From: a virus
Lineage: Duplodnaviria; Heunggongvirae; Uroviricota; Caudoviricetes
Direction: 5' to 3' (one strand)
Length of the DNA stretch: 15,934 nucleotides
IMG/VR virus record: IMGVR_UViG_2724679239_000005
A program made the translations under genes and the position numbers. The notes beneath the pieces were generated by a model. That model was given only the letters and a program-made list of their open reading frames with translations, was not told the origin of the DNA and did no database searches. Shown one piece after another: positions 1-15,934 of the stretch (its first letter is position 1; the number at the start of each line of letters is the position of its first letter).

Positions 1-1329
1 ATGAGGTTTGGGTACATTGCTTTGGGTACACCCCCTATTCAAAGTTTGGATATTCGCAAAATGCCAAAACTAACAGACATGCAGATCCGCGCATGGATTA
101 AGAGCGGAGAGCGATTCGAGGGGCGGGCAGACGGTAACGGTTTATACCTACGTTACCGTGAAGCCGACAAAACCCCCACATGGAGATTCCGCTATAAACT
201 CGCAGGGAAGTCCCGCGCCATGCTAATTGGTTCGTATAGCGAGCTATCACTATCAAAGGCCAGAGAGACAGCCAAAGAGCTGTCAGCCAGAGTTGCTCTT
301 GGCTATGACGTAGCAGCAGAGAAACAGGAACGAAAAGCTGAAGCACTGGCAAAAATGGAGGCTGAGAAAAACGCCATGCGTGTTTCAGATCTGGCCTCCG
401 AATACTTCGAGCGCCAGATACTTCCGAGATGGAAACATCCCGATATCCTTCGCCGGAGAATTGATAAGGATATTAACCCCTGCATTGGGCATATGAAGGT
501 AGAGGACGTTAAGCCACGCCACATTGACAACATGTTGAAAGGTATCGTTGACCGAGGAGCACCAACGATAGCAACAGATGTATTACGCTGGACACGCCGT
601 ATCTTTGACTATGGGATAAAACGCCACGCTCTGGAGATAAACCCTTGTTCAGCGTTTGAAGTATCTGATGCTGGTGGTAAAGAGGTTTCCCGCGACCGTT
701 GGCTAACTCGCGATGAGCTTATCAGGCTATTCGAGGCTATGCGCACCGCAAAAGGATTCAGCCGCCAGAACGAACTGACATTTAAGCTATTGCTGGCACT
801 ATGCGTTCGTAAGATGGAGTTATGCGCCGCACGATGGGAAGAGTTTGATTTAGATGGTGCGGTATGGCATTTGCCGGAAGAACGCAGCAAAAACGGAGAC
901 CCTATTGATATACCTCTACCTTCTCCTGCCGTTGAATGGTTGAGAGAGCTACACACCTTTTCATGTAATAGCGCATGGGTGCTTCCAGCCAGGAAGATGC
1001 AAAACAGAATGATCCCACATATTCAGGAAAGCACTTTACCCGTAGCACTGGCTAAGGTTCGCGCCGAAATGCCGGATGTGCCTAATTTCACGATTCACGA
1101 CTTCCGGCGTACCGCACGTACTCATTTAGCAGCATTGGGTGTTGATCCTGTCGTAGCGGAACGATGCCTCAATCATCGCATTAAGGGTGTGGAGGGGATT
1201 TATAACCGCCATCAGTATTTTGATGAGCGTAAAGCTGCGCTGGCACAGTGGGCTGATCTGCTGGTGGCACTGGAAAGCGGGAAAGACTACAACGTAACGC
1301 CATTCGATAAAGCCCGGAGGCAAATGTGA
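1..1329 (+). CDS. int: Tyrosine recombinase / phage integrase, P4/CP4-57 type
   Basis: Frame open from ATG at 1. N-terminal arm-type region (KLTDMQIRAW...GNGLYLRYR...WRFRYK) and C-terminal catalytic motifs HDFRRTART and LNHRIKGVEGIYNRHQY, typical of tyrosine recombinases. The likely true start is ATG at 61 (MPKLTD...), because the first 60 nt carry DNA-level direct repeats and encode no integrase-like residues. Confidence 0.9.
   Translation: MRFGYIALGTPPIQSLDIRKMPKLTDMQIRAWIKSGERFEGRADGNGLYLRYREADKTPTWRFRYKLAGKSRAMLIGSYSELSLSKARETAKELSARVALGYDVAAEKQERKAEALAKMEAEKNAMRVSDLASEYFERQILPRWKHPDILRRRIDKDINPCIGHMKVEDVKPRHIDNMLKGIVDRGAPTIATDVLRWTRRIFDYGIKRHALEINPCSAFEVSDAGGKEVSRDRWLTRDELIRLFEAMRTAKGFSRQNELTFKLLLALCVRKMELCAARWEEFDLDGAVWHLPEERSKNGDPIDIPLPSPAVEWLRELHTFSCNSAWVLPARKMQNRMIPHIQESTLPVALAKVRAEMPDVPNFTIHDFRRTARTHLAALGVDPVVAERCLNHRIKGVEGIYNRHQYFDERKAALAQWADLLVALESGKDYNVTPFDKARRQM
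7..30. repeat. 10-bp perfect direct repeat TTTGGGTACA x2 (7-16, 21-30), 14 bp centre to centre
   Basis: Read directly. The 14-bp offset is not a multiple of 3, so the repeat is DNA-level rather than a peptide repeat. GGTACA resembles the iteron core found downstream of the primase. Confidence 0.3.
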
Positions 1330-1976
1330 ACAACATCTTGAGAAAATCGCCAATCGAACGGCTTTGTTCATCTGTATCGATTACCCCTCATGAAATGGCT
1401 GTGGCCTTGGCTGGCCTAAACCCATCTATGCGCATTAGCGATGTGCCTGAGGAAAATTTCGAATATGTCGATTTTGTCAGAACTCATCTTGCCAGAGCTA
1501 TCAAGGTGTACAGAGGTGAAAAAACTAGTAAAGACGAGCCTTGCCATGCCCTTGATATTTTCTTAGCTTCTTACCCATTTATTGACACAAATACACCAGA
1601 AATAATTGTTCAGAAAATATCAGAAGCGATTGATGATTTGCGTGGCACCAAGGGCTGGGAAGAAAAAGCCCGAAACCTTGGAGGACTCCAGTTAGTAAAC
1701 TACATCAAAGAAACCAACCGCAGCGGACGTGGGCAGCATAGAAAGCAGGATGAGGAAAACGGGACAATGAAAATGATGGGGTTGATAGTACATCTGCTGA
1801 TAAAAAAATCAGGCTCATCTTCCTACATCCAAAATGGGAAACCTAATCGCACAGCTATATACCGTGACATAGAAACCTTAATCAAGGATGAAGGGATATC
1901 CCATAAAGGAATAGCAAAAGCCACATTCCTAGAAAAAATCTCACGGGCTTTATTAGCTGTCCACGATCTCGACTAA
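1326..1976 (+). CDS. Hypothetical protein, 216 aa, GTG start overlapping the int stop (GTGA); alternative ATG start at 1395
   Basis: Six-frame ORF. 4-bp overlap with the int stop suggests translational coupling. Visibly more AT-rich than int. No motif recognised. Confidence 0.5.
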   Translation: MNNILRKSPIERLCSSVSITPHEMAVALAGLNPSMRISDVPEENFEYVDFVRTHLARAIKVYRGEKTSKDEPCHALDIFLASYPFIDTNTPEIIVQKISEAIDDLRGTKGWEEKARNLGGLQLVNYIKETNRSGRGQHRKQDEENGTMKMMGLIVHLLIKKSGSSSYIQNGKPNRTAIYRDIETLIKDEGISHKGIAKATFLEKISRALLAVHDLD

Positions 1977-2333
1977 TCACTTTTCACGCCCCTCCAAAGC
2001 AATGGCGGGGCATTACCTGTTTACCCATCTCCACCAGCATAGATAATTCTAGCCTAGCCATTGCTATATCTGTTCGGCTTAGTTCATCTGTAATCACCCC
2101 ATCTCTAAAAGATACGCCAGCTATCATTAGCCATTTTAAGCCATCATGAGCCATTATAAACCGACTCAACCAATTGAATAATAAAAGATAAAAAGAAATG
2201 TAAAAACATGATGAATGACGATGAAAGATATAACTCTTTGATAAAACAATGATTTTTTAAACTGGTAACTAATTGAAAATAAAGAAAATAATTATCCCAC
2301 CTGCATTTGCAATCTTTCAGTGGATCGGTATTT

Positions 2334-2366
2334 TTTCAATAGATTTATAATTTCTTTCAATAGATT
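2334..2366 (+). promoter_or_regulatory. Candidate operator/promoter upstream of alpA: 12-bp direct repeat TTTCAATAGATT (2334-2345, 2355-2366) flanking a TATAAT hexamer (2346-2351)
   Basis: Read directly in the very AT-rich 470-bp gap. Repeats are 21 bp apart (about two helical turns) with a consensus -10 hexamer between them. No good -35 at 17 bp. Confidence 0.3.
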
Positions 2367-2446
2367 CTAGTCTTAATAGAAATACTGTATGGGCAACCAC
2401 TAAACTTTAAGTAACTTCATGAGCTATCAGAGAGGTTACTAGAGAT

Positions 2447-2665
2447 ATGACAGCACACAAGCCAGCATCATCAGCTATCCCAACAACTGGATACATCCGT
2501 CGCTTTCGCATGCCGGAATTGCTAGGTGTTTCACTGCCTACTATTGATAGATGGGTTAAAAATGGCACTCTTCCACGCCCAGTGAAGCTAACAGATAACG
2601 TGACTGCGTTTGATGCGGTGGAAATTAATAACTGGCTGGCAGAACGCCGCGGGAAGGTGGCCTGA
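2447..2665 (+). CDS. alpA: AlpA/Vis-family phage transcriptional regulator (small HTH, excision activator type)
   Basis: 72 aa. Segment MPELLGVSLPTIDRWVKNGTLPRPVKL matches the AlpA-family helix-turn-helix pattern. RBS AGAGG/GAGAT upstream of ATG 2447. Position after int and before the replication genes is typical. Confidence 0.85.
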   Translation: MTAHKPASSAIPTTGYIRRFRMPELLGVSLPTIDRWVKNGTLPRPVKLTDNVTAFDAVEINNWLAERRGKVA

Positions 2666-3096
2666 TGGAAAAGAAAAACCGCCCATTACAGGCGGCTAAT
2701 TCAGATATTCGCGTATCTGATGTTACGCCCCTTACAAAATCCCTTCAAGCACCAAAGCGCACACCGAAAAAGCATCGTGCCAGAGTCTATATGCTGCGTA
2801 CTGGTATAGAGGGATGGACAGAAAATGACATTCTTCGCTACTGCCGTCTGTCTTCTGGTCGTAACTATGCAACAGAGTTAGAACGCCAGCTTGGAATCAC
2901 TCTGGAGCGTATCGACGAAAAGAATCCTGATGGTATCGGAACACACCTTCGCTACCGTTTCTCCTGCCGTGGTGATGTTCTGAAAGTGATCACTCATGTT
3001 AACCATCTTGCGAACATAAATGATCACAACGGACTTTCTCAGCAGGAAATTGCCGACATTCTGAAACTCTACCCGAACGCGTTTAACGCCGCCTAA
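2665..3096 (+). CDS. Hypothetical protein, 143 aa, basic N-terminus
   Basis: ORF start overlaps the alpA stop by 1 nt (TGATG), indicating coupling. No recognisable motif. Confidence 0.6.
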   Translation: MEKKNRPLQAANSDIRVSDVTPLTKSLQAPKRTPKKHRARVYMLRTGIEGWTENDILRYCRLSSGRNYATELERQLGITLERIDEKNPDGIGTHLRYRFSCRGDVLKVITHVNHLANINDHNGLSQQEIADILKLYPNAFNAA

Positions 3097-3108
3097 CGGA
3101 GACTGAAA

Positions 3109-3942
3109 ATGAACATCGAAAAAAGCAGATTAATTTCTGAGGCCGCCCCTCATCTGAACGCCTCTCTGGGCACAATTAACGGTAATGAATTTGCCGCAAT
3201 TGTCCCGGTTATTCCTGGTCATATCGGTGGGCGTGAAACCAATATTGTTAGCGCAAAAGCGTTACACAAAGCGTTGGGCGTGGGAAAAGACTTCTCTACA
3301 TGGATCACTGATCGCATCTCTGAATATGACTTCACCATTGGGCACGATTACTCAGTCCATAAAACAATTTCCCCAAATTTGGGGAAAAGCCCGAATGGCG
3401 CGGCTTACAGCAAGATTAAGCAGTCTGGCAGACCCGGCAAAGACTATCTGTTAAGTGTCGGAATGGCGAAAGAACTGGCAATGATCGAACGCAATGATCA
3501 GGGTCGCGCTATCCGTCGTTATTTCATCCAGTGCGAGGAAGAATTACAGCGTAGCGTGCCTGAAATCGCCGCCCGCTATCGTCGCCAGCTAAAAGCCCGT
3601 ATCAGTGCCGCAAACAACTTTAAGCCAATGTGCGATGCGCTGAATATGGCCCGTGCCGAGACGGGGAAAACGACGCAGCAACACCACTACACAAACGAGA
3701 GCAATATGATTTCTCGTATCGTTCTTGGTGGGCTAACTGCTAAGCAGTGGGCGCGGATAAATGGCTATTCTGGCGAACCTCGCGACCATATGAACGCAGA
3801 ACAGCTTGAGCACCTCTCATATCTCGAAAGCACCAATATCACGTTAATTGATATGGGCATGGAATATGAGCAGCGCAAAGGAGAACTCACCCGCCTGTCG
3901 CAACGCTGGCTCGCCAAGCGTCTGGAGGCGGTCCATGTTTAA
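3109..3942 (+). CDS. Phage antirepressor-like protein with AntA/AntB-type N-terminal domain
   Basis: 277 aa. Motifs SAKALHKALGVGKDFSTWITDRISEYDF and KDYLLSVGMAKELAMIERNDQGRAIRRYFIQCEEEL match the AntA antirepressor domain signature (V.ARDLH...GKDFSTWI...DY.LT.DMAKELAMVER...R.YFI). SD CGGAG 7 nt before the ATG. Confidence 0.75.
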   Translation: MNIEKSRLISEAAPHLNASLGTINGNEFAAIVPVIPGHIGGRETNIVSAKALHKALGVGKDFSTWITDRISEYDFTIGHDYSVHKTISPNLGKSPNGAAYSKIKQSGRPGKDYLLSVGMAKELAMIERNDQGRAIRRYFIQCEEELQRSVPEIAARYRRQLKARISAANNFKPMCDALNMARAETGKTTQQHHYTNESNMISRIVLGGLTAKQWARINGYSGEPRDHMNAEQLEHLSYLESTNITLIDMGMEYEQRKGELTRLSQRWLAKRLEAVHV

Positions 3943-4117
3943 GCCGACAGGAACACCACAACCCCAAAAACGCTACAAAGATGCCCACGGAGCACTCGTT
4001 ACTGTCGAAAGCGTGTCTCACAACCGAGTGACGTTTTATCGCGACGGGTATCAATCGCCATGCGTACAACCGCTGGCACGTTTCATGAAGGAGTTCGCGG
4101 AGGTTAACAAATGCTAA
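3935..4117 (+). CDS. Small hypothetical protein, 60 aa (MFKPTGTPQPQKRYKDAHGALVTVESVSHNRVTFYRDGYQSPCVQ...), possibly DUF4222-like
   Basis: Strong SD GGAGG (3924-3928) 6 nt before ATG 3935. Start overlaps the end of the upstream gene. Domain assignment is from memory and tentative. Confidence 0.5.
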   Translation: MFKPTGTPQPQKRYKDAHGALVTVESVSHNRVTFYRDGYQSPCVQPLARFMKEFAEVNKC

Positions 4118-5187
4118 CCGCCCAGAAGAAGATGTTTTCACTGGCTGGTATGTCGCCAAAATCCAGCAATATGACAGCAAAGTCAGACATTAATACAGCA
4201 GATACAAGCAAAGTTTATCATTTGCTGGTGGTAGGAGCGGGTGCCTTAACTATGTCAGAAATTACGGTCGATGGTGTTAGCGTTGAGAAGGTCAGCGGCT
4301 GCGCCAGAGAATTTCTGGTCGTAGATGACCTGTTCTGCTCGTGTAGTGACTCCACAAAAACATTCGTCCACGCGCGTGACGTTAACGAAATGAGCGCGAT
4401 GTACTGTGCATCTGGTGCTTCCAATAGCGAGTTTTCGGAGTCCATAAAAAAGAGCTTGCCGTTATGCGGCAACACGGTTTATGGTTATAAGGCACCTCAT
4501 AAAACGGGTGCCGGGATTGGCGTCCTGGTAAATCGAATGGCGACATATGACGCGCCGAGCGTCTTTTTTTATGTCGTAGGTCTGACTCACCCATTTTTTG
4601 GGCGTTGGTGTATAATCCAGCGCCTTTGTCAATCAATGGTGGCTCAGGCAGGGGCTTCTTCGGAAGCGCCGGTATCCATTCGAGCCGGTTACGCCAACCC
4701 TGTCTGGGCTACCACCAGCGAAATTGGCGTTTCCGGTGGTAGCGTTACATGCTATCGAATGGAGGCTGCCACATGCTGGCTACTACCCCTACCCAAAAAC
4801 CGCAATTTATCTGGATTATCGCCGCAGTTCGCCGCGATTGCCCGACAATTACCGCCAAAATTCATCATATTGCTGCCGAGTCTGAACGCGATGCTCGCCG
4901 TTCTCTGGTGCGCGATCACGTCTGCTTTTTTGCTGGTCGTATCCGCATGGAGGTGGCACATGATTAAAACCTACGATGTGCATATGGATCCCCTCGAACG
5001 CACAAGCCAGATCATCACACTGACAGAAGTGATTAACGACATTCTGGTGAGCAACTCTCCCTCACGAGACGAAAGACTGAAGGCGTTACTCGCGATATTG
5101 GATCTCGCCGTTCGTGACGTTCATTTCCTGCTGGAAGGTGGCGAAATGCCAGGAAAAACGGGGGCAACCAATGAAGAACTCAATTAA
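4111..5187 (+). CDS. Ash-family-like open frame (358 codons), true 3' extent uncertain; overlaps the Icd-like gene in another frame
   Basis: Strong SD GGAGG (4099-4103) 7 nt before ATG 4111. Contains a segment resembling the Ash-family signature ([26 protein letters not shown]). The frame stays open to 5187 and there are long shadow ORFs on both strands, so the coding extent is doubtful. Confidence 0.35.
4773..4967 (+). CDS. Host cell division inhibitor Icd-like protein, 64 aa
   Basis: Strong SD GGAGG (4761-4765) 7 nt before ATG 4773. Sequence [14 protein letters not shown]...[11 protein letters not shown]...FAGRI resembles Icd-like proteins of P1/P4-type elements as I recall them. Confidence 0.5.
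   Translation: MLATTPTQKPQFIWIIAAVRRDCPTITAKIHHIAAESERDARRSLVRDHVCFFAGRIRMEVAHD
4960..5187 (+). CDS. Small hypothetical protein, 75 aa; in-frame internal start of the 358-codon frame
   Basis: Strong SD GGAGG (4949-4953) 6 nt before ATG 4960. Overlaps the Icd-like stop (ATGATTAA). Confidence 0.3.
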   Translation: MIKTYDVHMDPLERTSQIITLTEVINDILVSNSPSRDERLKALLAILDLAVRDVHFLLEGGEMPGKTGATNEELN

Positions 5188-5365
5188 TACCCCTCGCCTT
5201 ACGTCCGCACTTCAATTAATCGAGCAAGCAGCGGCTGTCCTGGTTGCTGTCAGTCTTTCGGCTGAAGAAATGGACGCTGCTGATGTCGTGGATGCGATTA
5301 AAGCGTGCTCATCTTTGGTTAACGATGCCCGTGCCGAGCTGGTAATTCTTGGGGGTGAAAAATGA
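5171..5365 (+). CDS. Small hypothetical protein, 64 aa ([24 protein letters not shown]...)
   Basis: ATG 5171 preceded by a G-rich SD-like stretch. Stop overlaps the next start (ATGA at 5362-5365). Confidence 0.45.
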   Translation: MKNSINTPRLTSALQLIEQAAAVLVAVSLSAEEMDAADVVDAIKACSSLVNDARAELVILGGEK

Positions 5366-5625
5366 ATATCAACTTAATTTATCGTCATCCGTGTGAGCTG
5401 GAAATTGAATCATTGCTGGGGCGCGAAGAGCCATATCCAGACACATTCACTCCCGCAGATTGCGCGACTGAACGGCTTACCAGAGCGCGCACAGGTCTGG
5501 TTCATGTGATGAATGAGATTATTCCCTCGGTGGGAGGGGAACAGGCGACAGTAATCAATAGCTGGCTACAAAAAGTTACCTCCCTGATAGATATCAGTTT
5601 AATCGATGTGGAGAGTGCGAAATGA
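5362..5625 (+). CDS. Hypothetical protein, 87 aa
   Basis: ATGA start/stop overlaps at both ends. SD GGGGGTGA upstream. Confidence 0.55.
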   Translation: MNINLIYRHPCELEIESLLGREEPYPDTFTPADCATERLTRARTGLVHVMNEIIPSVGGEQATVINSWLQKVTSLIDISLIDVESAK

Positions 5626-5843
5626 CCAACATCCAGCTCATTGAAGCGCAATGTCGCATCGAACAGGTTCAGACTGTTTTAGGGTTCTGGCTTGAAGGGG
5701 CCAGCCCCAGCAACAGAGACAAGTTAATGATTGGCGCGGTTATGTCACTGCTCAATGGCGTACCAGAAGCTATTCAGGAAGCAGACGAATTGTTGGGCAA
5801 ATATGAGTTACAGAATCATTCAGGCGAGGCGAAACATGAATAA
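5622..5843 (+). CDS. Hypothetical protein, 73 aa
   Basis: ATGA overlap with the upstream ORF. Its stop overlaps the next start. Confidence 0.55.
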   Translation: MTNIQLIEAQCRIEQVQTVLGFWLEGASPSNRDKLMIGAVMSLLNGVPEAIQEADELLGKYELQNHSGEAKHE

Positions 5844-6438
5844 TTTCTTAACCTTCCATGCAGAAGCAACGCCTGACGGCATAAACATCATGCACCGCAG
5901 CAACGATGGCATGACAGAACGCGTTGAGACCGTCTCATATATTGATGCCGTAAATCGTCTGGATGCCGGGGATTATGACGATAAACCAGATGAAGGCATG
6001 TTTATACATCTCGCTATTGCCAGTGGCGGCAACCAGGGATATTTCGATTACACATCACAGCATCACGTGATTATGTGGCGCTGGCTGATAGCAACAGCAT
6101 TCATCAATGAAATGAGAAAGGAAAACGGCACCGTCAGCATTATTGATGACAGTGGCAATCATTCCGTGGTTTCTGTTTATTCCAATGGCATCGTCGCCAT
6201 GCCGCTGTATCCAGTAGCAGAGCGCCTCGCTATGGCAAACAACATTGAGGGCGCAATGATCGAGAAATATGGTGTTGATGTCGGAACAAAGAATGCCATC
6301 ATTTTTTACAGCAACATGTTCGATGTCGAACAGGGAACACTCACTTCGTTTGGGCGAGAAGTGCTTGCCGATCTTCACAACAGCTTTATTGCCGAACTAA
6401 ACGAAAACGGCATCCCAGAAGCACCAGTGACGCACTAA
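5836..6438 (+). CDS. Hypothetical protein, 200 aa, immediately upstream of the primase
   Basis: ATG 5836 lies inside ATGAATAA, overlapping the upstream stop. Same frame as the 5731 ORF in the track. No motif recognised. Confidence 0.6.
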   Translation: MNNFLTFHAEATPDGINIMHRSNDGMTERVETVSYIDAVNRLDAGDYDDKPDEGMFIHLAIASGGNQGYFDYTSQHHVIMWRWLIATAFINEMRKENGTVSIIDDSGNHSVVSVYSNGIVAMPLYPVAERLAMANNIEGAMIEKYGVDVGTKNAIIFYSNMFDVEQGTLTSFGREVLADLHNSFIAELNENGIPEAPVTH

Positions 6439-6450
6439 ACGGGGGCCAGA

Positions 6451-8802
6451 ATGCGAAACATTGATCTTATCCGTCAGGTTATCAGTGCGTCTGAAAACAA
6501 CTGGCCTCATGTGCTGGGCTGCCTGAACATAAATGTCCCTGACTCTCCGCGCCGTCATGCTCCCTGCCCTGCATGTGGGGGCAAAGATCGATTCCGGTTC
6601 GATGACAACGGGCGCGGTAGCTTCATCTGTAATCAGTGCGGCGCTGGTGATGGGCTGGATTTAATTAAACGCGTAAATAACTGCGACACAACAGAGGCGG
6701 CGCTTCTTGCCGCTGATGTTCTGGGTATTGATTACCGGACAACGGAAACACCAGAAGCCACCAGCCAGAAACGGGAACAACTGGAAGCCGAGCGCCAGCG
6801 ACGCGAACAGGAGCGCCTGAAAAGGGCAGAGAAGGACGAACAACAAAGACGGGATACGTTTTCCCGTCAGTTTGATGACATGCGCAGAAAGGCTGTAAAC
6901 GGCAAATCTGATTATCTGGTTGCGAAAGGGGTAGGTGATTTTACATTCCCCGTGTTGCCAGATGGATCTCTATTGCTGGCGCTGGTGGATAAATCCGGCG
7001 CAGTCACCGCAGCACAGACTATTACCTCACATGGTGAAAAAAGACTCCTGACAGGTTCGGCAAAGCGGGGGGCATATCACGCCATAAACGCACAGAAACG
7101 ACCTCACAGCATCATAATTGCTGAGGGGGTGGCTACCGCCCTGTCGTGCCATTTAATTCGCCCTGACGCAATGACAGTGGCAGCAATCGACGCTGGCAAC
7201 CTGTTGCCAGTAGCGGAAGTCATGCGCAGAACATATCCACAGGCACAAATCATCATTGCCGCAGATAACGATCACCAGCAAGGAAACTCCGAAAGTGGAG
7301 GGATCAACACGGGGAAAGATGCCGCAGAGAGGGCCGCTATTTCCGTAGCTGGCTGGGTGTCTCTGCCACCGACTGACTATAAAGCCGACTGGAACGACTA
7401 TCACCAACAACACGGGCTGGCGGCAGCCACAGCAGCATTTAAAGATTCGATGTACCAGCCACGGGGGAAAGGGGCGCAGGTGAAAAATCACAAACAGTCA
7501 GTCGGGGCGCTGAATGAGATCAGTTCTGGCGAGGTGTTAAGCGATGATGAAATTGCTGTCCTCGAAGAAATCAACCGGACGTTTACGCATGTCACCATCG
7601 GCGGGAAACACAAGGTGGTGTCGCTAAAGCCTTCTCAAACCGGCGGTGTATCGCACGTTTTCGAGGATTTATCACAATTTCAGCATTATTTTCATCATAA
7701 ACCGAGAGTCGCCAGAAAGCTGGCGGGATCGGCGTGGCTGTCATGGAGTGGGAAGAACTACAAGCCAGGAGGCGTAGGATTTTATCCAGTACCAGACAAA
7801 TGCCCTGACGATGTTTTTAATCTGTATGAGGGGCTGGCACTGGAACCAATTGAAGGAGATTGCACGGTATACCTTAATCACCTGTTGCAGGTTGTCTGTG
7901 CCGGTAATGAGGAGGCATACCAATATCTTATCCAGTGGATGGCGCACATTATCCAAAAGCCTGATGAAAAACCGTCCGTGGCAATCGTGATGAAATCTGT
8001 CCCGGGCACAGGGAAAGGCACAACGGTTAAACCGCTGCTGCAAATACTGGGGCAGTACGCCGCCCACATTAACGGGGCGGGACATATTTCAGGGCGCTTC
8101 AATTCAATACTTGCTAACAAGCTACTGGTATTTGCTGACGAAGTGACGATCCACAAGCCGTCTGAAGCTGACAGACTTAAAGCGATTATTAGCGAACCGA
8201 CGTTTAACCTTGAGCGCAAGGGAATTGATGCTGAACCAATGCCGAATTTTGCCCGGTTGATATTTGCCAGTAACAGCACACAGGTATTACAGGCAGGGAT
8301 AAGAGAGCGTCGCTATCTCGTGCTTGAGCCATCTCCTGAAAAAGCACAGAGTCGGGAGTATTTTGATCGGCTGTACAGTTGGCTTAATGATGGCGGTGCC
8401 GCAAAGTTGCTTTGGCATCTTAAAGGGGTGGATCTCTCAGGTTTTGACCCTCAACGAGCGCCACAGACCGATGCCTTACGTGAAGAAATCTTGCTGGGGC
8501 TGTCTGGCGTTGAATTGTTTCTTTATGGCGAGCTAATCAATGAACCTCCGTTTAATGGCGAAGTCCGTTTGTTTGCAAAGGATATGGTTAGTCGATTTGT
8601 AGCGTGGTCGCTTGAGCGTGGGGAAAAGCTTAAAGAGCCAGCAGCCAGATCACTACTGGGTAAATCACTTGCACAAATGGGGCTGGTGAAGCATGGAAGA
8701 CCAGACCGAGGGAATGGCGTGTTCTACGAACTACCAGAGGTCGGAGTTCTACAGGCTGCGTTTGCCCGTCTGATCGGTATGGGGGGTTATGATGTTTTTT
8801 AA
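6451..8802 (+). CDS. Phage/plasmid primase-helicase, P4 alpha-like (Zn-ribbon, TOPRIM primase, C-terminal P-loop helicase domain)
   Basis: 783 aa. N-terminal Cys4 motif CPACGGKDRFRF...FICNQCG; TOPRIM-like acidic motifs IIIAEGVATA and IIIAADNDHQ; P-loop-like MKSVPGTGKGTT and Walker-B-like LLVFADEV. SD GGGGG 5 nt before ATG 6451. Confidence 0.92.
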   Translation: MRNIDLIRQVISASENNWPHVLGCLNINVPDSPRRHAPCPACGGKDRFRFDDNGRGSFICNQCGAGDGLDLIKRVNNCDTTEAALLAADVLGIDYRTTETPEATSQKREQLEAERQRREQERLKRAEKDEQQRRDTFSRQFDDMRRKAVNGKSDYLVAKGVGDFTFPVLPDGSLLLALVDKSGAVTAAQTITSHGEKRLLTGSAKRGAYHAINAQKRPHSIIIAEGVATALSCHLIRPDAMTVAAIDAGNLLPVAEVMRRTYPQAQIIIAADNDHQQGNSESGGINTGKDAAERAAISVAGWVSLPPTDYKADWNDYHQQHGLAAATAAFKDSMYQPRGKGAQVKNHKQSVGALNEISSGEVLSDDEIAVLEEINRTFTHVTIGGKHKVVSLKPSQTGGVSHVFEDLSQFQHYFHHKPRVARKLAGSAWLSWSGKNYKPGGVGFYPVPDKCPDDVFNLYEGLALEPIEGDCTVYLNHLLQVVCAGNEEAYQYLIQWMAHIIQKPDEKPSVAIVMKSVPGTGKGTTVKPLLQILGQYAAHINGAGHISGRFNSILANKLLVFADEVTIHKPSEADRLKAIISEPTFNLERKGIDAEPMPNFARLIFASNSTQVLQAGIRERRYLVLEPSPEKAQSREYFDRLYSWLNDGGAAKLLWHLKGVDLSGFDPQRAPQTDALREEILLGLSGVELFLYGELINEPPFNGEVRLFAKDMVSRFVAWSLERGEKLKEPAARSLLGKSLAQMGLVKHGRPDRGNGVFYELPEVGVLQAAFARLIGMGGYDVF

Positions 8803-8830
8803 TATAGTCTTTTTACAAGAAGATCGTTTT

Positions 8831-8936
8831 TACCTGTACCACCTATACCACTTTGCTAATTCAGTATTAAAAACAGTGCGTTATAGTGGTACAGGTCAAT
8901 ATCTTACCTATACCAGACCTGTACCACCTATACCAT
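8831..8936. repeat. Iteron cluster A: 18-bp perfect direct repeat CCTGTACCACCTATACCA (8833-8850, 8918-8935) plus inverted copy GGTACAGG (8888-8895) and CCTATACCAG (8907-8916)
   Basis: Read directly in the 176-bp gap just after the primase stop. Candidate origin or primase-binding repeats by analogy to the P4 ori/crr octamer iterons. Confidence 0.5.
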
Positions 8937-8978
8937 TAACAAACGCATTTCTTCTGGCTGGCTGAGAGGGAACAACCA

Positions 8979-9209
8979 ATGATGAGCACACCATTTTACA
9001 AAGTGCGCCAGTTAGCTTCTTCCTCTGGCTGGCAGCTACGGTTTGAGGGGCGTTCAGACTGGCTACCCATTGCGGCATGGGCGAATGTTGAAATGTGTAT
9101 TGACGGCGATACCGTTGAAATCATTATTCCCTGCGTGGCAAGTCGGGACGGCTGTATAGAGCCAACAGATATGGCAGCAGAAATCAGAGAGGTAAAACAT
9201 GAACAATAA
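8979..9209 (+). CDS. Hypothetical protein, 76 aa
   Basis: SD GAGGG 9 nt before ATG 8979. Stop overlaps the downstream start region. Confidence 0.45.
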   Translation: MMSTPFYKVRQLASSSGWQLRFEGRSDWLPIAAWANVEMCIDGDTVEIIIPCVASRDGCIEPTDMAAEIREVKHEQ

Positions 9210-9936
9210 CTATTGCATACTGCAGGGAATGACCAGAACGGAGCGCGAAGAATTAAAAAGTTTCGCTACACAGTGCGGGAATGCTGGCGACATCCAAAGT
9301 CTGGAACGCACTTTAATTATGATTGCGCACTGGATGCGCCAGGGGCAAAGAGTTTCATTTACTGAATATGCCAGCCAGTGGACAGAGGCACAGCGCGAAC
9401 GGAGCGACGGTAATCACTCAACACCCGAAATGGCGAAGCAATGGCCTTTCAGTGGTAAACGCTGTATCAGTCCCGGTGGTTCAGATTATTACCCTGCTGG
9501 TGTGGGAGATGAGCCATGTTGTGACGAGACTGAAATCCGCCACGCAGTGACAGTAATTACCGCTGAATACCCACAATTTAACCTTGACGGACTGGCGCTC
9601 CACAACCGGAATGCGGACTGGGAAAACCCGCTTGATAACCCGTCATTTATCGTATCGGCGAAAAGCTGCCTGAGATGGATCAGAGACAACGGGATGAGTA
9701 ATGCCCAGATTGAGAGCTTCCCGCAGGATAACCCCACATCTGACACGTTGAAGCATGAAGTGGAGCGATATAACCAGATAAACCACCAGCACAGTGATCA
9801 CCCGCACTATATCCCCAACGGAGCATTTATTGCGGCGATGGTGGCAAGCGGCTACAAGGTTAAGCCAGCGGGAAGAATGAACGCATTTTTCAATATTTCA
9901 AAAAAGGGATTATGTGCTGCTATGGGTAAAAATTAA
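9199..9936 (+). CDS. Hypothetical protein, 245 aa, Cys/His-containing
   Basis: SD AGAGAGG 6 nt before ATG 9199. No motif recognised. Confidence 0.55.
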   Translation: MNNNYCILQGMTRTEREELKSFATQCGNAGDIQSLERTLIMIAHWMRQGQRVSFTEYASQWTEAQRERSDGNHSTPEMAKQWPFSGKRCISPGGSDYYPAGVGDEPCCDETEIRHAVTVITAEYPQFNLDGLALHNRNADWENPLDNPSFIVSAKSCLRWIRDNGMSNAQIESFPQDNPTSDTLKHEVERYNQINHQHSDHPHYIPNGAFIAAMVASGYKVKPAGRMNAFFNISKKGLCAAMGKN

Positions 9937-9940
9937 ATAA

Positions 9941-10046
9941 ATGGTACAGGTCTGTACAGGTGGGGAGAGGTCATTTTTACCCACCTGTACCACCTGCAGG
10001 CCGCGCCACACAAGGGTTTGTGACATGGTGGTACAGGTGGTACAGC
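9941..10046. repeat. Iteron cluster B: GGTACAGG (9943-9950), TGTACAGGTGG (9953-9963), inverted CCACCTGTACC (9981-9991), tandem GGTGGTACAGGTGGTACAG (10027-10045)
   Basis: Read directly. Includes an inverted repeat TACAGGTGG / CCACCTGTA (9955-9963 and 9981-9989) and the same core as cluster A. Confidence 0.5.
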
Positions 10047-10410
10047 AAAAACAGCGATTTTCTTTATAAGGTATGTTTTGCTCATCTGGCAGACGGAGGT
10101 ATTCGCTGCGGTTTGGCACATAGCCCAGAACAGCAAAGAGTTTTACGAGACTTTTGTAAAATCCAGTGTACAAGGGCGTGACGTTTTTGAAGGTGAGCAC
10201 TACGAAATTTTCGTAGTTCAAAAAATAGCCTCTGAGATGTTGTTATGCCTGTTCAGCAAACCATCCGCATAGCTGATCGCGAATCAAATTACCAATGGAG
10301 CCAGAAGCAAGGGCAGAACTGGAAAGCGCCTGCCGTGAAGAGTAATGCGACTCCATAAATATAGTTTTTAGAGTCCATAAAAAAACTGTCAAAACCTGAC
10401 ATACAGAACG

Positions 10411-10443
10411 ATGCCACCAGCTACTGAACGGTGGCATTTTTTT
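10411..10443 (+). terminator. Rho-independent terminator (8-bp stem ATGCCACC/GGTGGCAT, 11-nt loop, 7-T run)
   Basis: Stem 10411-10418 pairs with 10430-10437, followed by a T run to 10443. Only the + strand has the U-tract. Confidence 0.55.
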
Positions 10444-10538
10444 GTGCTATTTGTTTCATATTTTGCAATCACAATGATGAATGTTGCGTTTTATGAAACT
10501 ATAATGACTGTTGTTTTATACAGTTATAAGGGGGCGTT

Positions 10539-10712
10539 ATGGCTATTTCAGTAAAGCCAGTATTGATAAGTGAGAAGCAAATGGAAGCGATAAAGAAAAT
10601 TCAGGAGGAGCAGCGTAAAAAATCAGAGGTAGGAGTTGCGCCAACGATCCACGAAATTGCTCGGGGATTAATGGATAAGGCGCTGGCTTACACTTTAACT
10701 GGACGTGGGTAA
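10539..10712 (+). CDS. Small protein, 57 aa, possible ribbon-helix-helix DNA-binding regulator
   Basis: Not in the supplied ORF track; translated by hand as MAISVKPVLISEKQMEAIKKIQEEQRKKSEVGVAPTIHEIARGLMDKALAYTLTGRG. SD AAGGGGG 4-5 nt before the ATG. Short strand-helix-helix pattern compatible with RHH; the fold is inferred. Confidence 0.4.
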   Translation: MAISVKPVLISEKQMEAIKKIQEEQRKKSEVGVAPTIHEIARGLMDKALAYTLTGRG

Positions 10713-10716
10713 ATTT

Positions 10717-12060
10717 ATGGCTACGTGGCAACAGGGTATTAATTCTGGTGGTTTTCTGGCTGGCATCGGTGCGCAAAATGAGAATGCGCCAAAGGCAAGC
10801 GACATTAACGCAACGCTTGGTCTGATCCGCGAAAACAATGAACTGGCTCGCTCAGGTGCAAATAACGTTGCTCTGACAGGTCTTCGTGGTCTGGCTGGAG
10901 TTGCTGACATTTATAAGCAGCAGCAACAGCAGGAACGTAAAGCGGCATTCCAGAAAGGTTATGCAGATGCTTATGCGTCCGGTGACAGGGAGCAGATGCG
11001 TAATCTTATTACAGCATTCCCAGAAGAGTTTGAGGAAGTCCGTAAAGGGATGAGTTATGTCGATGATGCTCAAAGGGATGATTATGGCAATCTGGCGCTC
11101 AAAGCACAGGTAGCCTCATCGCTTGGTCAGGGCGCATTTGGCAGGTTCATGATGGATAATGAGCAGGAGATGCGTCGTTTAGGTATCCCTCCAGAAACTA
11201 TTGCTGAAATGCAGGTTAATGACCCGCAGGGCTTCCAGCATTTCGCAGGTAATCTGGCGCTGTTTTCTCTCGGTCATGAGAAGTATTTCGATATCAAAGA
11301 TCAAATGGAAGGTCGTCGACTTGAGCAAGGGCGACTGGATGAAAGTATGCGTCAGGCTGACATGGAGAACGCGAGAGGATGGGCAAATATCCAGAACGCT
11401 CAACTAGACAGGGCTCAGCGAGCACAAATTCACTCAGATGAGATGGGATTGAAGCTAATGGAGCTGGGGCAAAAAGGTAAGCCGTCAGCAGACTTAATTA
11501 AGGGATTAAATTCTGACATTACCAATTTTGGCAAAAATTATAACTCTGTCAGAGCGGCGGCAAACTCTCTGCAAGCCCTTAGCAAGGTAAATACTGGCGC
11601 TGCCCAACTTGGGATTATCTTCAACTACATGAAATCTCTTGACCCGCAGTCAGTCGTTCGTGAAGGCGAACAGGTTCAGGTAATGCGGTCTGATGGCATA
11701 TGGGGACAAATCAAAGGATACATAGACCAGCTTAATGCTGGAAACGGCCTGTCGCAGGAGGCAAAGGATAACATTGTTAACGCCGCAAAAATCAACGCCA
11801 ATGCTATGGGGCAGCAGTTTAACCAGCAGGTTGACGAGTATCTCGATACATATGGAGAAACTATTCCTCAGGGGCTAAGAAAAAGCCTTGAAAGAAGGAA
11901 AGCGAAGCTATTTGACGATGTTTCCGGGCAGCCTACATCACAGGCTGGCACTGGACAGGCAAAAGCGGCAACCGGAGGAATATCAGAAGGCGCAACGGCA
12001 ACCAACCCTAAAACTGGTCAGAAAATCATTTACAGGAACGGAAAATGGCAGCAAATGTAA
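10717..12060 (+). CDS. Hypothetical protein, 447 aa, Gly-rich N-terminus, Gln/Ala-rich with long predicted coiled-coil; alternative GTG start at 10705
   Basis: Long ORF with coding-like composition. Checked for Walker A (GxxxxGK[ST]) and common nuclease or protease motifs; none seen. Confidence 0.65.
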   Translation: MATWQQGINSGGFLAGIGAQNENAPKASDINATLGLIRENNELARSGANNVALTGLRGLAGVADIYKQQQQQERKAAFQKGYADAYASGDREQMRNLITAFPEEFEEVRKGMSYVDDAQRDDYGNLALKAQVASSLGQGAFGRFMMDNEQEMRRLGIPPETIAEMQVNDPQGFQHFAGNLALFSLGHEKYFDIKDQMEGRRLEQGRLDESMRQADMENARGWANIQNAQLDRAQRAQIHSDEMGLKLMELGQKGKPSADLIKGLNSDITNFGKNYNSVRAAANSLQALSKVNTGAAQLGIIFNYMKSLDPQSVVREGEQVQVMRSDGIWGQIKGYIDQLNAGNGLSQEAKDNIVNAAKINANAMGQQFNQQVDEYLDTYGETIPQGLRKSLERRKAKLFDDVSGQPTSQAGTGQAKAATGGISEGATATNPKTGQKIIYRNGKWQQM

Positions 12061-13238
12061 TCTTACCGGAAGGTTTTGTGCTCGATGAACAACCTGATAA
12101 CTCACAGTTTCCTGATAGTTCACAGCTTCCTGATGGTTTTGTGCTTGATGCCCAACCAGAACAGCAGCAATCACCTTTGGTTTCACCAGAGGAAAATTCC
12201 AGACAGGAAAATGTTGTTAATAATGCTAACGGTTTCGACCGTTTTATGTATGGCGTTCTCAGTGGATTGATGGATGTTGGTAAAGGTGTTGGCCTGTTTC
12301 AGGATATGACACCAGAAGAGCAAGCCGCAATTCAGTCTCTACAGCAGAAGTTAGCGGCAAAACCATCAACCGCACAAGATGTTGGTGAGTTCGTTGGACA
12401 AGCAGCGCCATTTGTTAGTGGTGGTGGGATTATTTCTCAGGTTCCCAAAGGGGCGGCAAGACTGGCTGCCGCCGCAGGGCTTGGTGCTGGAGAAGGGGCT
12501 ATTGTAGCCAATGGAACAAATAGCGATGTTGCTTCCGGCGCTGCTATTGGCGCTGTGGCTGGCCCTGTAGCCGAACTTGCTGGCCCTGCAATTAATAAAA
12601 TAGCTGGGAAATTAACCAAGAAGAATGTTTCTTCGATTCCAGATATTGAGGGGATTACTCCTGCCGAAGAGAAAATTCGTAAGTTATCTGCACAAGGCAA
12701 CCCAAATCTTGCCTCTTCGCTTGAAGGGCTAGATCTAAAACCTCAGAAAGAAATTGTTGAGGCTGCAAATAGGCTTCATGTTGATTCAGTTCTTCCTTCT
12801 CATTTATCAGGAAATGAGCAATACCAAGCTGTAGAGCAAGCCCTAAAGTCACGGACAGGATCAGCGTTAAAAGCTCAAGAAGATAAAGCAATAAGCGAAT
12901 TAGCCTCTAGTGCTGGCAAGATAATCGATGATGTTGCTGGTGCGCCAGATGCGTTAGCTATGAGCGAAAAATATATTTATCAGATAAATAGTAGAATGGA
13001 AGCACTAAAAAACCGTAGTGATCAGTTATATAAACGTGTTGATTCCGCTCTATCACCAAGAACAAAAGTCGAAGCAAATAACACAAGCACTATGCTGGAA
13101 AAAATCGCTGATGATTTAGGAGGGTGGGATAATCTTGACCCAATAGAAAAGCGAGTTTTTACAGCAATAAACCCCGGCCCAGATAGCATCCTAACGTATG
13201 CAAATTTAAACAGGCAAAGGCGTTTAGTTGGTGATTAG
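12045..13238 (+). pseudogene. N-terminal fragment (397 codons) of a roughly 705-aa gene interrupted by IS2; stop codon TAG supplied by the first bases of IS2
   Basis: ATG 12045 with SD AGGA 7 nt upstream, overlapping the end of the 447-aa gene by 16 nt. The frame runs into the IS2 left end, where TAG at 13236-13238 terminates it. Confidence 0.7.
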
Positions 13239-13326
13239 ACTGGCCCCCTGAATCTCCAGACAACCAGTATCACTTATTTAAGTGATAGTCTTAATACTAG
13301 TTTTTAGACTAGTCATTGGAGAGCAG

Positions 13327-13692
13327 ATGATTGATGTCTTAGGACCGGAGAAACGCAGACGGCGTACTACACAGGAAAAGATCGCTATTGTTCAGCAGAG
13401 TTTTGAACCGGGAATGACGGTCTCCCTTGTTGCCCGGCAACACGGTGTGGCAGCCAGCCAGTTATTTCTCTGGCGCAAGCAATACCAGGAGGGAAGTCTT
13501 ACTGCTGTGGCCGCAGGAGAGCAGGTCGTTCCTGCCTCTGAACTTGCTGCTGCCATGAAGCAGATTAAAGAACTCCAGCGCCTGCTCGGAAAAAAAACGA
13601 TGGAAAATGAACTCCTTAAAGAAGCCGTTGAATATGGGCGTGCAAAAAAGTGGATAGCGCACGCGCCCTTATTGCCCGGGGATGGGGAGTAA
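13327..13692 (+). CDS. insC: IS2 transposase OrfA (InsC), 121 aa
   Basis: [41 protein letters not shown]... is the IS2 InsC sequence. The track ORF starting at 13282 is an upstream in-frame extension. Confidence 0.9.
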
Positions 13693-14555
13693 GCTTAGTC
13701 AGCCGTTGTCTCCGGGTGTCGCGTGCGCAGTTGCACGTAATTCTCAGACGAACCGATGACTGGAAAGATGGTCGCCGCAGCCGTCACTCAGATGATACGG
13801 ATGTGCTTCTCCGTATACACCATGTTATCGGAGAGCTGCCCACGTATGGTTATCGTCGGGTATGGGCGCTGCTTCGCAGACAGGCCGAACTTGATGGTAT
13901 GCCTGCGATCAATGCCAAACGGGTTTACCGGATCATGCGCCAGAATGCGCTGTTGCTTGAGCGAAAAACCGCTGTACCGCCATCGAAACGGGCACATACA
14001 GGCAAAGTGGCCGTGAAAGAAAGCAATCAACGATGGTGCTCTGACGGGTTCGAGTTCCGCTGTGATAACGGAGAAAAACTGCGAGTCACGTTCGCGCTGG
14101 ACTGCTGTGACCGTGAGGCACTGCACTGGGCAGTCACTACGGGCGGCTTCGACAGTGAAACAGTACAGGACGTAATGCTGGGAGCGGTGGAACGCCGCTT
14201 CGGCAACGAGCTTCCGGCGTCTCCAGTAGAGTGGCTGACGGATAATGGTTCATGCTACCGGGCTAATGAAACACTCCAGTTTGCCCGGATGTTGGGGCTT
14301 GAACCGAAGAACACGGCGGTGCGGAGTCCGGAGAGTAACGGCATAGCAGAGAGCTTCGTGAAAACGATAAAGCGTGACTACATCAGTGTCATGCCTAAAC
14401 CAGACGGTTTAACGGCAGCAAAGAACCTTGCAGAGGCGTTCGAGCATTATAACGAATGGCATCCGCATAGTGCACTGGGTTATCGCTCGCCACGGGAATA
14501 TCTACGGCAGCAGGCCAGTAATGGGTTAAGTGATAACAGGTGTCTGGAAATATAG
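13650..14555 (+). CDS. insD: IS2 transposase OrfB (InsD), 301 aa; expressed as an OrfAB fusion by -1 frameshift at AAAAAAG (13644-13650)
   Basis: [23 protein letters not shown]... is IS2 InsD. GTG start at 13650 lies at the slippery heptamer. The sequence shows typical IS3-family integrase-core character. Confidence 0.9.
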
Positions 14556-14566
14556 GGGCAAATCCA

Positions 14567-15498
14567 GTGATGCCCTAAATAAAAAGCAGGGGCCATACAA
14601 AGATGCTGATAAAGAAGCGCTATCAAGACTATATGGAGCTTTAGCTGAAGACCAAAAATCTGTCTTATCCAATACTGGATACTTGCGAGATTTCGAAGTC
14701 GCACAACGCCTTGTAGCTATGAGAAAAAACTTAGAAAGGCAAATGGTAAATCTTCGCGGGAAAACACTTAATGGGGATATAGCGTATAAAGTAACGAATT
14801 CTCTTCAATCTATGGCAAAAGGTGATGCGAGAGGGTTTCGTGAGATTATGCAAAATACTCCATCAAGAACATTGCGAAGGGAGCTAGTAGGAACAGCATT
14901 AAGAGATATGCTTTCCTCTGGGAAGCGTGGGGCCGACTTTAATCCATCTGGCTTTGCAGATTGGTGGCAAAACTTGCAACACAGTGGACAGCTAAAGACT
15001 TTGGCTGAACATTTGCCAAAAGAAACAATGAGCGGACTATATGATGTATACAAAGTTGCCAGAGCAATAAAAAATGCTAAAGCGCATGAAATATCTACTG
15101 GTAAGCTGAATGAGTTTGTAAACAGATTTAATCGGGTAACAGCTCCATACGAACTAGCAGCAAAACACATTCAAAAAATAGGCACGATGGTAGGCGCTCA
15201 TTTTGGATCGCTTGGAGCCATTGCTGGGGCTGATATTGGAGCAAGATTGGCGAGTAAAGCTCGATTAGCTGGTGGAGCAGGGGCGGCTGATGCTGCGGAT
15301 AAATTAATTGCCTCGCCAGCCTTCCAGAGCGCAGTAAAAAATCTACACGGAAAAGCGCCTGGGCACATTGTTGATTCACGTATCAGGCGCTCCCCTCAAT
15401 GGAAGAGTTTTTTTAACTCTCTTCCTGAACAGGAAAAACGGACCATCGCCAGACTGGGCATCATTACTTGGCTATCTAATGATCCAGATAATGACTAG
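14567..15498 (+). pseudogene. C-terminal fragment (about 308 codons) of the IS2-interrupted gene, in frame with the N-terminal fragment once IS2 and one TSD copy are removed
   Basis: Removing 13236-14566 and one GTGAT joins ...RRLVGD to ALNKKQGPYKD... in frame. The track ORF 14530-15498 is this frame extended back into the IS2 right end. Confidence 0.65.
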
Positions 15499-15517
15499 TG
15501 AATGGCCACGGATGGCC

Positions 15518-15934
15518 TCAATCTTTATTCTTTGAAATAGAGTCATTGATCTTTTCGAAACACCAATGAAATCCACAAAAGAGAGCTACACCAATATAAC
15601 AATACAAAACTATCAACCACCTTTCAGTGTCCGAAGGGTAAAAAACATCAATTACATAAGCAACACCAATTGGTATTAATGCTAGTAATAACATCGACAC
15701 AGGACGTACAAACTTCTGAACTATATCAATTTTATAGAACCACAAAGCGGTATGTTTAATGATATAAGTAAAGATGGCTGCGCCAATAATGGCAAAAAAC
15801 ACCATCGATAAAGTCGGGTATAACTTTGCGACAATTAAACCCAACAAAATAATTATAACTGCCTGCCCCCTCACACCAACCCTCCCTTTAGCTTTGTTTA
15901 GAATGGCAATCATCATATATCCAAGACATGGCAT
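15518..15934 (-). CDS. Small integral membrane protein, 138 aa, about 4 predicted TM helices, AT-rich; convergent with the cargo operon
   Basis: Reverse-strand ORF whose ATG is the last 3 nt of the window. Hydrophobic segments AVIIILLGLIVAKLY, MVFFAIIGAAIFTYII, VSMLLLALIPIGVAYVI, WLIVLYCYIGVALFCGF. No similarity recognised. Confidence 0.6.
   Translation of the reverse strand: MPCLGYMMIAILNKAKGRVGVRGQAVIIILLGLIVAKLYPTLSMVFFAIIGAAIFTYIIKHTALWFYKIDIVQKFVRPVSMLLLALIPIGVAYVIDVFYPSDTERWLIVLYCYIGVALFCGFHWCFEKINDSISKNKD

Follow-up and report, generated by a model that had tools for sequence, protein, structure and literature searches.

The closest described relative of the element analyzed here is EcCIMP1, a phage-inducible chromosomal island (PICI) of Escherichia coli MP1 that is mobilized by the phage Kapi1 (Pick, Stadel & Raivio, ISME J 2025, PMC11773190). 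Excision of EcCIMP1 has been seen only with this P22-like phage, which transduces it at low frequency; the island requires alpA and contributes to superinfection immunity (PMC11773190). Mobilization by a helper (excision, replication, transduction) has been shown only for EcCIMP1 with Kapi1 (PMC11773190). Its authors stated that the island is without phage structural genes, and treated the genes that concern us here as hypothetical, possibly acting in packaging or morphogenesis (PMC11773190). We examined an operon of three genes (10539-15498) in the IMG/VR record IMGVR_UViG_2724679239_000005, a Caudoviricetes stretch of 15,934 nucleotides that is called the window below. A first-pass annotation, made from the letters alone, had read these genes as uncharacterized variable cargo and as the best candidate for an undescribed anti-phage system. 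Our results indicate instead that the two large genes encode homologs of gp20 and gp16, two ejection proteins (E-proteins) of P22-like phages, and that the window's island is, judging by its gene content, a member of the published EcCIMP1 family of PICIs, satellites of P22-like podophages (genus Lederbergvirus).

In P22, the DNA-translocation channel is built from ejected gp20 in the periplasm and ejected gp16 in the inner membrane, and a 2026 preprint describes gp7*, gp20 and gp16 as assembling in sequence into a trans-envelope channel. P22 virions take up foreign E-proteins (Leavitt et al., mBio 2024, PMC10883804). Hybrids with Sf6 gp16 alone or Sf6 gp20 alone are dead and those with both are viable; gp16 and gp20 work only as a matched pair, and gp7 can be swapped alone (PMC10883804). 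A mismatched gp16 enters virions, yet the particles are non-infectious, and mutations that escape the exclusion protein SieA map to the C-terminal regions of gp16 and gp20 (PMC10883804).

The 447-aa product of the second gene (10717..12060, plus strand) is a homolog of P22 gp20, the periplasmic-channel component of the P22-type ejectosome. It matches the Pfam family PF16928 Inj_translocase ('DNA/protein translocase of phage P22 injectosome') over residues 12-219 with 246.8 bits (E 2.5e-73), well above the gathering threshold of 29.7 bits, as well as phrog_917 (4e-132), and its RefSeq name is already 'phage DNA ejection protein'. Across the full length of the 447-aa protein it is 74.7% identical to Kapi1 gp20, and in residues 1-212 it is 54% identical to P22 gp20, the first ~70 residues being nearly identical. 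As in Kapi1 and EC.P3, the gp20 gene is immediately followed by gene 16 within the cluster of E-protein genes. Its reading frame opens at 10705 or 10717 and ends at 12060, and the conserved start, MATWQQ, corresponds to the ATG at 10717.

The third gene, where uninterrupted, codes for 705 aa, and its product is a homolog of the gp16 of P22-like phages. It matches phrog_6704 over the whole length (1.4e-174) and also phrog_770 'DNA transfer protein' (1.2e-50), is 41-44% identical over its full length to gp16 of Kapi1 (41%), EC.P3 and E212, and is 63% identical to Sf101 gp16 over residues 204-701. BLASTP finds no similarity between the 705-aa protein and gp16 of P22 itself, a silence that fits the 22-26% identity reported between gp16 types (Leavitt et al., PMC10883804); hhalign aligned the window's allele class with the P22-type gp16 collinearly over 378 columns, with a probability of 86% and E 4.7e-6. 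Sequence searches of the PDB with gp20 and gp16 gave no matches. In Kapi1 and EC.P3 the order is gp14-gp7-gp20-gp16, and gp20 and gp16 overlap by 16 nt, exactly as the second and third genes do in the window. The intact phages Kapi1, EC.P3, E212, Sf101 and P22 have homologs in the syntenic place, which lies between gp7 and the sieA/immI region; homology to virion proteins of intact phages was the very observation that the first-pass annotation had named as counting against a defense role. The Gly/Ala-rich stretches it had pointed out are present in the translations where it placed them, and they belong to gp16, a membrane-associated channel component; the likeness to phage ejection or pilot proteins that it had sensed proved to be homology with the P22-type proteins.

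The open reading frame (ORF) list bears out the tight, co-directional arrangement described by that annotation, with genes for 57 aa, 447 aa and 705 aa (the last when uninterrupted), a 4-nt gap between the first two and the 16-nt overlap between the second and third. It had also attributed the break in the third gene to IS2, correctly, since the window aligns with the IS-free copy L001 of E. coli KE26 as 2570-13235 and 14567-15934, with 5 bp in common. The intervening 1331 bp (13236..14566, plus strand) encode IS2 TnpA (NCBIfam 3e-83) and TnpB (NCBIfam 7.7e-212), and a 5-bp target-site duplication, GTGAT, is found at 13231-13235 and 14567-14571. The third ORF of the window, 12045-13238, is accordingly an interrupted gene: codons 1-397, the N-terminal part with a Gly/Ala-rich hydrophobic segment, lie at 12045..13235 (plus strand), and codons 398-705 with the stop, the C-terminal part with a second Gly/Ala-rich segment, at 14567..15498 (plus strand). 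From this C-terminal part onward (to 15934) the window is 99.9% identical to L001 16833-18200, and the IS-free gene in L001 codes for the 705 aa given above. Because IS2 splits gp16, the copy of the module in the window should be non-functional. Intact copies exist elsewhere, as at least 80% of 10400-13235 is covered in 86 complete E. coli genomes.

The IS-free locus is flanked by yicC and yicG. It consists, in order, of int, a hypothetical gene, an AlpA-type helix-turn-helix gene, a 143-aa gene, AntA/B, DUF4222, Ash, four small genes, a DUF5906 primase-helicase, two genes, the 57-aa gene, gp20 and gp16, after which come a convergent membrane-protein gene, accessory genes and PerC. The backbone int-AlpA-143aa-AntA-DUF4222-Ash-primase ... 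PerC is common to the window's island and EcCIMP1. The satellite-like context and operon organization proposed from the sequence alone are correct. Genes for coat, portal, terminase or tail proteins are missing from the IS-free locus, the window's island contains no recognized capsid or packaging gene, and tblastn of that island with gp14 and gp7 of Kapi1 and EC.P3 gave no match. Nor is the 57-aa protein a piece of gp7.

The module is widely kept. The leader and small gene occur in 455-521 of 5426 complete E. coli genomes (~9%, about one in eleven), and gp20 and gp16 stand together in all 11 other islands inspected (9 from E. coli, 1 from Serratia and 1 from Leclercia), a count that leaves out the window's own IS2-disrupted copy. 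The small gene is followed by gp20-gp16 only in L001, L005, L016, L018 and L019 (57 aa) and in the Serratia island L011 (53 aa). In 5-6 of the inspected islands (L006, EcCIMP1 or L007, L008, L020, L021 and the Leclercia island L010) the module is gp14-gp7-gp20-gp16, headed in L006, L007, L008, L020 and L021 by the 53-aa gene; EcCIMP1 itself, in the MP1 genome, has the 53-aa gene, gp14 (DUF2824), gp7, gp20 and an SLT-containing gp16.

The alleles are mosaic to the same degree as in phages, and the island E genes exchange segments with phages. The window's gp20 is a chimera of an island-type N-terminal half, residues 1-200 being 99.5% identical to L005, and a Kapi1-type C-terminal half, residues 201-447 being 92% identical to Kapi1. 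At the DNA level the similarity of the island to Kapi1 is limited to gp20 and the start of gp16, where a single block, window 11299-12565, comprising the C-terminal half of gp20 and the first ~170 gp16 codons, is 89% identical. The ratio of nonsynonymous to synonymous substitution rates (dN/dS) is 0.086 for the C-terminal half of gp20 against Kapi1, 0.16 for gp16 and 0.31 for gp20 between islands, and 0.07-0.13 for the leader gene. Values of 0.07-0.31 indicate working genes under purifying selection rather than debris. The E-protein module belongs to the conserved gene content of the island family and is under selection, though its alleles are mosaic, and the description of it as variable cargo cannot be upheld.

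We consider it somewhat probable that the operon is an ejectosome module of an EcCIMP1-family PICI, whose own matched gp20 and gp16 would be assembled into helper-built virions for DNA delivery. When a P22-like helper goes lytic, the island would be induced, by an AlpA-dependent route as in EcCIMP1, and the operon would then be transcribed from a conserved activator-type promoter. The island gp20 and gp16 would co-assemble into helper-built procapsids, as foreign E-proteins do in P22, and the channel through which particles deliver their island DNA would consist, at least in part, of the island's own proteins. gp16 and gp20 function as a matched pair, and gp7 can be exchanged alone; in line with this, the smallest module of the islands consists of just gp20 and gp16, and gp7 and gp14 could come from the helper. 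From this match between the minimal module and the functional unit we infer that the island E-proteins would be made during helper lytic growth and enter procapsids. The likely benefit would be a delivery channel unlike the helper's type, for example one that evades SieA-like injection blocks in helper lysogens, and mixed helper particles may, as a side effect, be less infectious.

In two strains the island and the helper do carry different types. The E-proteins of EcCIMP1 are only 26% (gp20) and 24% (gp16) identical to those of its helper Kapi1. The O20:H12 strain (NZ_CP062855.1) contains both a prophage 98-99% like Kapi1 (L015) and an EcCIMP1-like island at yicC (L016); BLASTP finds no similarity between the gp16 proteins of island and prophage, and the island gp20 matches the prophage gp20 over the N-terminal 212 residues only, at 53% identity. 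This difference suggests selection for an unlike channel, which may serve to evade exclusion in lysogens, or else interference with the helper. The L015/L016 combination is in its own right a candidate natural helper-satellite pair with mismatched ejection proteins.

The module also has dedicated upstream sequences. A conserved non-coding operon leader (10140..10538, plus strand) contains a perfect 17-bp palindrome, CTACGAAATTTTCGTAG, at 10200-10216, an intrinsic terminator with the stem TGCCACC/GGTGGCA at 10412-10436 and T7 at 10437-10443, a perfect -10 element TATAAT at 10500-10505, and the Shine-Dalgarno sequence AAGGGGG at 10528-10534. There is no recognizable -35 element, and a consensus scan called no promoter. 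The upstream terminator of the first-pass annotation is confirmed. Four islands that differ in origin, primase and E-protein alleles are >97% identical over the ~400 bp that precede the small gene, the leader region of the window's island is >97% identical to that of EcCIMP1, and the promoter-proximal motif TTTCAT..TGCAAT..TGAAACTATAATnACTGT is kept in Serratia, Erwinia, Klebsiella and Raoultella. Mimicry of a helper promoter or pac site was considered for the leader and rejected, since it is without similarity to Kapi1 DNA. As a known RNA, the leader matched no Rfam family, and its RNA fold z-score of -1.64 is not convincing. The ~300 non-coding bp at 10140-10443, which end in the terminator, could be a small RNA, an operator region or a packaging signal.

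The first gene of the operon encodes an island-specific 57-aa leader protein (10539..10712, plus strand), which is identical in L001, L005, L016, L018 and L019 and 87% identical to the 53-aa variant. It has no Pfam or NCBIfam match and no phage homolog was found. A ribbon-helix-helix fold is plausible: the sequence fits the beta-alpha-alpha pattern, with no family or fold match behind it, and an AlphaFold2 monomer model shows an extended N-terminus and two helices (pLDDT 74.6), with which Foldseek returned no match in the PDB. The protein is conserved in the Enterobacterales, with homologs in Serratia, Klebsiella, Erwinia and Raoultella. A survey of genome contigs across species with gp20 peptide patterns gave 2 loci, and the neighborhoods of the 57-aa homologs were used instead. 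The Serratia homolog (53 aa) heads a gp20+gp16 operon; the others head a 108-aa gene and a 1050-aa tape-measure protein in Erwinia (L013:9001-12665), an SLT protein and a Dit-like protein in Klebsiella (L014:9001-11602), and a 605-aa protein of unknown kind in Raoultella (L012:9001-11064). That homologs of the leader gene behind the same promoter core head differing operons suggests modules matched to different helper morphotypes.

It would be tempting to generalize from these operons. EcCIMP1-type satellites might as a rule carry their own genome-delivery proteins, which in E. coli, Serratia and Leclercia would be matched gp20/gp16 pairs with gp14/gp7 or without them. An unlike-type channel would give satellite-loaded particles entry into cells protected by SieA-like proteins, helper lysogens (the hosts that a satellite needs most) included, with the gene after gp16 encoding the island's own exclusion protein; the tape-measure, SLT plus Dit-like and 605-aa operons of Erwinia, Klebsiella and Raoultella under the same leader gene would then fall under the same strategy. 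We regard this idea as tentative and rather doubtful, because the difference between island and helper channels has been seen in two strains and SieA excludes most E-protein types.

Several observations weigh against assigning the operon a delivery function in P22-like particles. The window's gp16 has no match to the Pfam family Phage_P22_gp16 (PF26808) at E <= 1, so that the proposed link to P22 gp16 itself draws on PHROGs, gene position and the profile-profile probability of 86%; Kapi1's own gp16 likewise has no Pfam match, and the PF26808 model therefore does not cover this allele class. Transduction of EcCIMP1 by Kapi1 is very inefficient, ~4.8e3 per ml (PMC11773190), and comparison of the leader with 36.4 kb of Kapi1 gave no similarity beyond chance 9-12-mers. 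The type difference between island and helper comes from only the two strains described above. Finally, phages with most E-protein types were excluded by two SieA types that differ strongly from each other (PMC10883804), and escape by a change of E-protein type is therefore not guaranteed.

The gene after gp16 bears on how any immunity phenotype should be assigned. In the window it encodes a 131-aa protein with four transmembrane (TM) segments predicted from hydropathy (15518..15913, minus strand), convergent with gp16 and 19 bp after it. P22 sieA lies 22 bp after gene 16, likewise on the minus strand and convergent, so that the four-TM gene occupies the position and orientation of sieA. Unlike sieA, however, it encodes a protein without detectable similarity to SieA: BLASTP gave E 1.5, the FxRYPxEAxxFNK motif is absent, and a SieA homolog is thereby rejected. 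No phage homolog of the 131-aa protein was found, and its gene is, from its position and predicted topology, a candidate superinfection-exclusion gene. In other islands the slot contains a different four-TM protein, with only the first 33 residues in common, or signal-peptide proteins. A 204-aa four-TM protein, WP_000087355.1, is encoded directly after gp16 at L019:11169-11783 (-) and L020:12255-12869 (-), and it is a true SieA homolog (BLASTP against P22 SieA E 8e-8, RYPGEA motif). Since sieA has been reported only within P22-like prophages (Leavitt et al., PMC10883804), its presence in L019 and L020 means that satellites carry it too. The EcCIMP1 slot (L007:12632-13330, minus strand) encodes a 232-aa lipoprotein with the lipobox LAGC and a faint TraT-like match (E 0.09), which is a candidate for the protein behind the superinfection immunity reported for EcCIMP1.

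The slot proteins at window 15518-15913 (-), L006:13995-14384, L016:11168-11557 and L018:11092-11532 differ from one another; they share only the first 15-33 residues (MIAILNKAKGRVGV...) and then diverge completely. Likeness confined to the N-terminus suggests that cassettes have been exchanged while the 5' end and promoter stayed fixed, and the varied contents, a SieA homolog included, mark the slot as a probable superinfection-exclusion cassette site. It is more likely that the slot gene is the source of any defense phenotype, the immunity of EcCIMP1 included.

This result weighs against the view that gp20 and gp16, with or without the membrane protein, defend the resident cell by blocking the channel of an incoming P22-like phage before induction. 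EcCIMP1 does add superinfection immunity against Kapi1 and no known defense system was found in it (PMC11773190), and the slot after gp16 holds envelope proteins, among them the SieA homolog of some islands. Nevertheless, exclusion is more simply assigned to that gene, whether SieA-like, lipoprotein or four-TM, than to the E-proteins, and the slot gene, being transcribed convergently, is not part of the operon. Furthermore, the products of the E genes resemble working virion proteins over their full length, the genes swap segments with phages, and PADLOC-DB 2.0 gave zero matches for the three operon proteins, the membrane protein and six further proteins of the island. We think a defensive role of the E-proteins improbable. 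The homology to virion proteins, the existing RefSeq name, the published EcCIMP1 (PMC11773190) and the silence of PADLOC together leave the original proposal of an undescribed anti-phage system unsupported.

Interference with the helper, which is compatible with delivery, is a stronger competitor, and one we judge rather unlikely. Here the island E-proteins would act as poison subunits that form mismatched channels and render helper progeny non-infectious, and it is in keeping with this idea that mismatched gp16 is incorporated into non-infectious particles (PMC10883804), that island and helper alleles differ in type, and that lowering helper yield is a usual satellite tactic. A single mismatched gene would suffice for poisoning, yet none of the 11 other inspected islands has one of gp20 and gp16 without the other, and purifying selection acts on both over their whole length; moreover, Kapi1 titers after induction are not reduced by EcCIMP1 (PMC11773190). 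A third alternative, that the operon is an inert fragment of a P22-like prophage caught by recombination and passively carried, might be drawn from the IS2-disrupted copy in the window, the truncated gp16 of L006 and the segments that are mosaic with phages. However, most copies of the module are undamaged and come with a conserved leader gene and promoter of their own, the module is present in ~9% of E. coli genomes as well as in Serratia and Leclercia, and its dN/dS is well below 1, all of which make passive carriage highly improbable.

A cluster of GGTACAG / CCTGTACC repeats read from the sequence at 9943..10046, directly after the primase-associated genes, is probably the island's replication origin; islands with a TOPRIM-DUF927 primase have other iterons at the same place (GGTTCAG / TGAACCAAC), and the iterons co-vary with primase type. 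Between the DUF5906 primase and the origin (8979-9936) lie two genes, of 76 aa and 245 aa and no family, which are found only in islands with the DUF5906 primase type. Window 1302-2570, after the integrase gene, contains a 216-aa ORF (phrog_30524, function unknown) and does not align with the KE26 island, where a 321-aa gene occupies that position, making this a second variable slot beside int. This operon has no relation to the Tai tail-interference systems of PICIs.

The locus in the window is mostly explained as an IS2-broken P22-type ejection cassette in a published PICI family. It is noteworthy that a satellite without capsid, packaging or tail genes keeps a matched DNA-delivery pair under its own conserved promoter and of a type unlike its helper's. 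In the literature we found no paper describing satellite-encoded P22 E-proteins as such. If these proteins do re-equip helper particles, this would be a new satellite mechanism and would offer direct access to the way in which SieA-type exclusion recognizes gp16 and gp20, and re-equipping of the ejectosome would form a new category of satellite piracy beside capsid-size redirection, packaging redirection and capsid formation. It could also account for the superinfection immunity of EcCIMP1, most plausibly via the slot gene after gp16.

Precedents exist for satellites with virion proteins of their own, as capsid-forming PICIs also carry their own homologs of helper virion proteins. SaPIbov5 encodes Ccm, a capsid-protein homolog (PMC8569155). 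The module resembles these in that a satellite has its own version of a helper structural protein, which would be built into helper-made particles, and it differs in that those proteins resize or build capsids whereas the products in the window are internal DNA-delivery proteins. Compared with the E-proteins of P22-like phages, the module has the same families (PF16928, PHROGs 917 and 770), gene order, 16-nt overlap and intragenic mosaicism, and as in P22, Kapi1, HK620, Sf6 and Sf101 its gp16 has Gly/Ala-rich membrane-type segments and is followed by an opposite-strand gene for an envelope protein. Unlike in those phages, the genes reside in a satellite island, gp14 and gp7 are absent from the window's island, and the module comes with a promoter of its own and a small leader gene not found in phages; the window's gp16 also lacks the SLT domain present in the EcCIMP1, Serratia and Sf101 alleles. 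EcCIMP1 differs from the window's island in its site (thrW instead of yicC/yicG), in its TOPRIM-DUF927 primase where the window's island has a DUF5906 primase and two extra genes, and in its module, gp14-gp7-gp20-gp16(SLT) followed by a lipoprotein where the window's island has two genes followed by a four-TM protein. Common to both are the same backbone, the conserved leader with its small gene, and an E-protein module placed after the origin.

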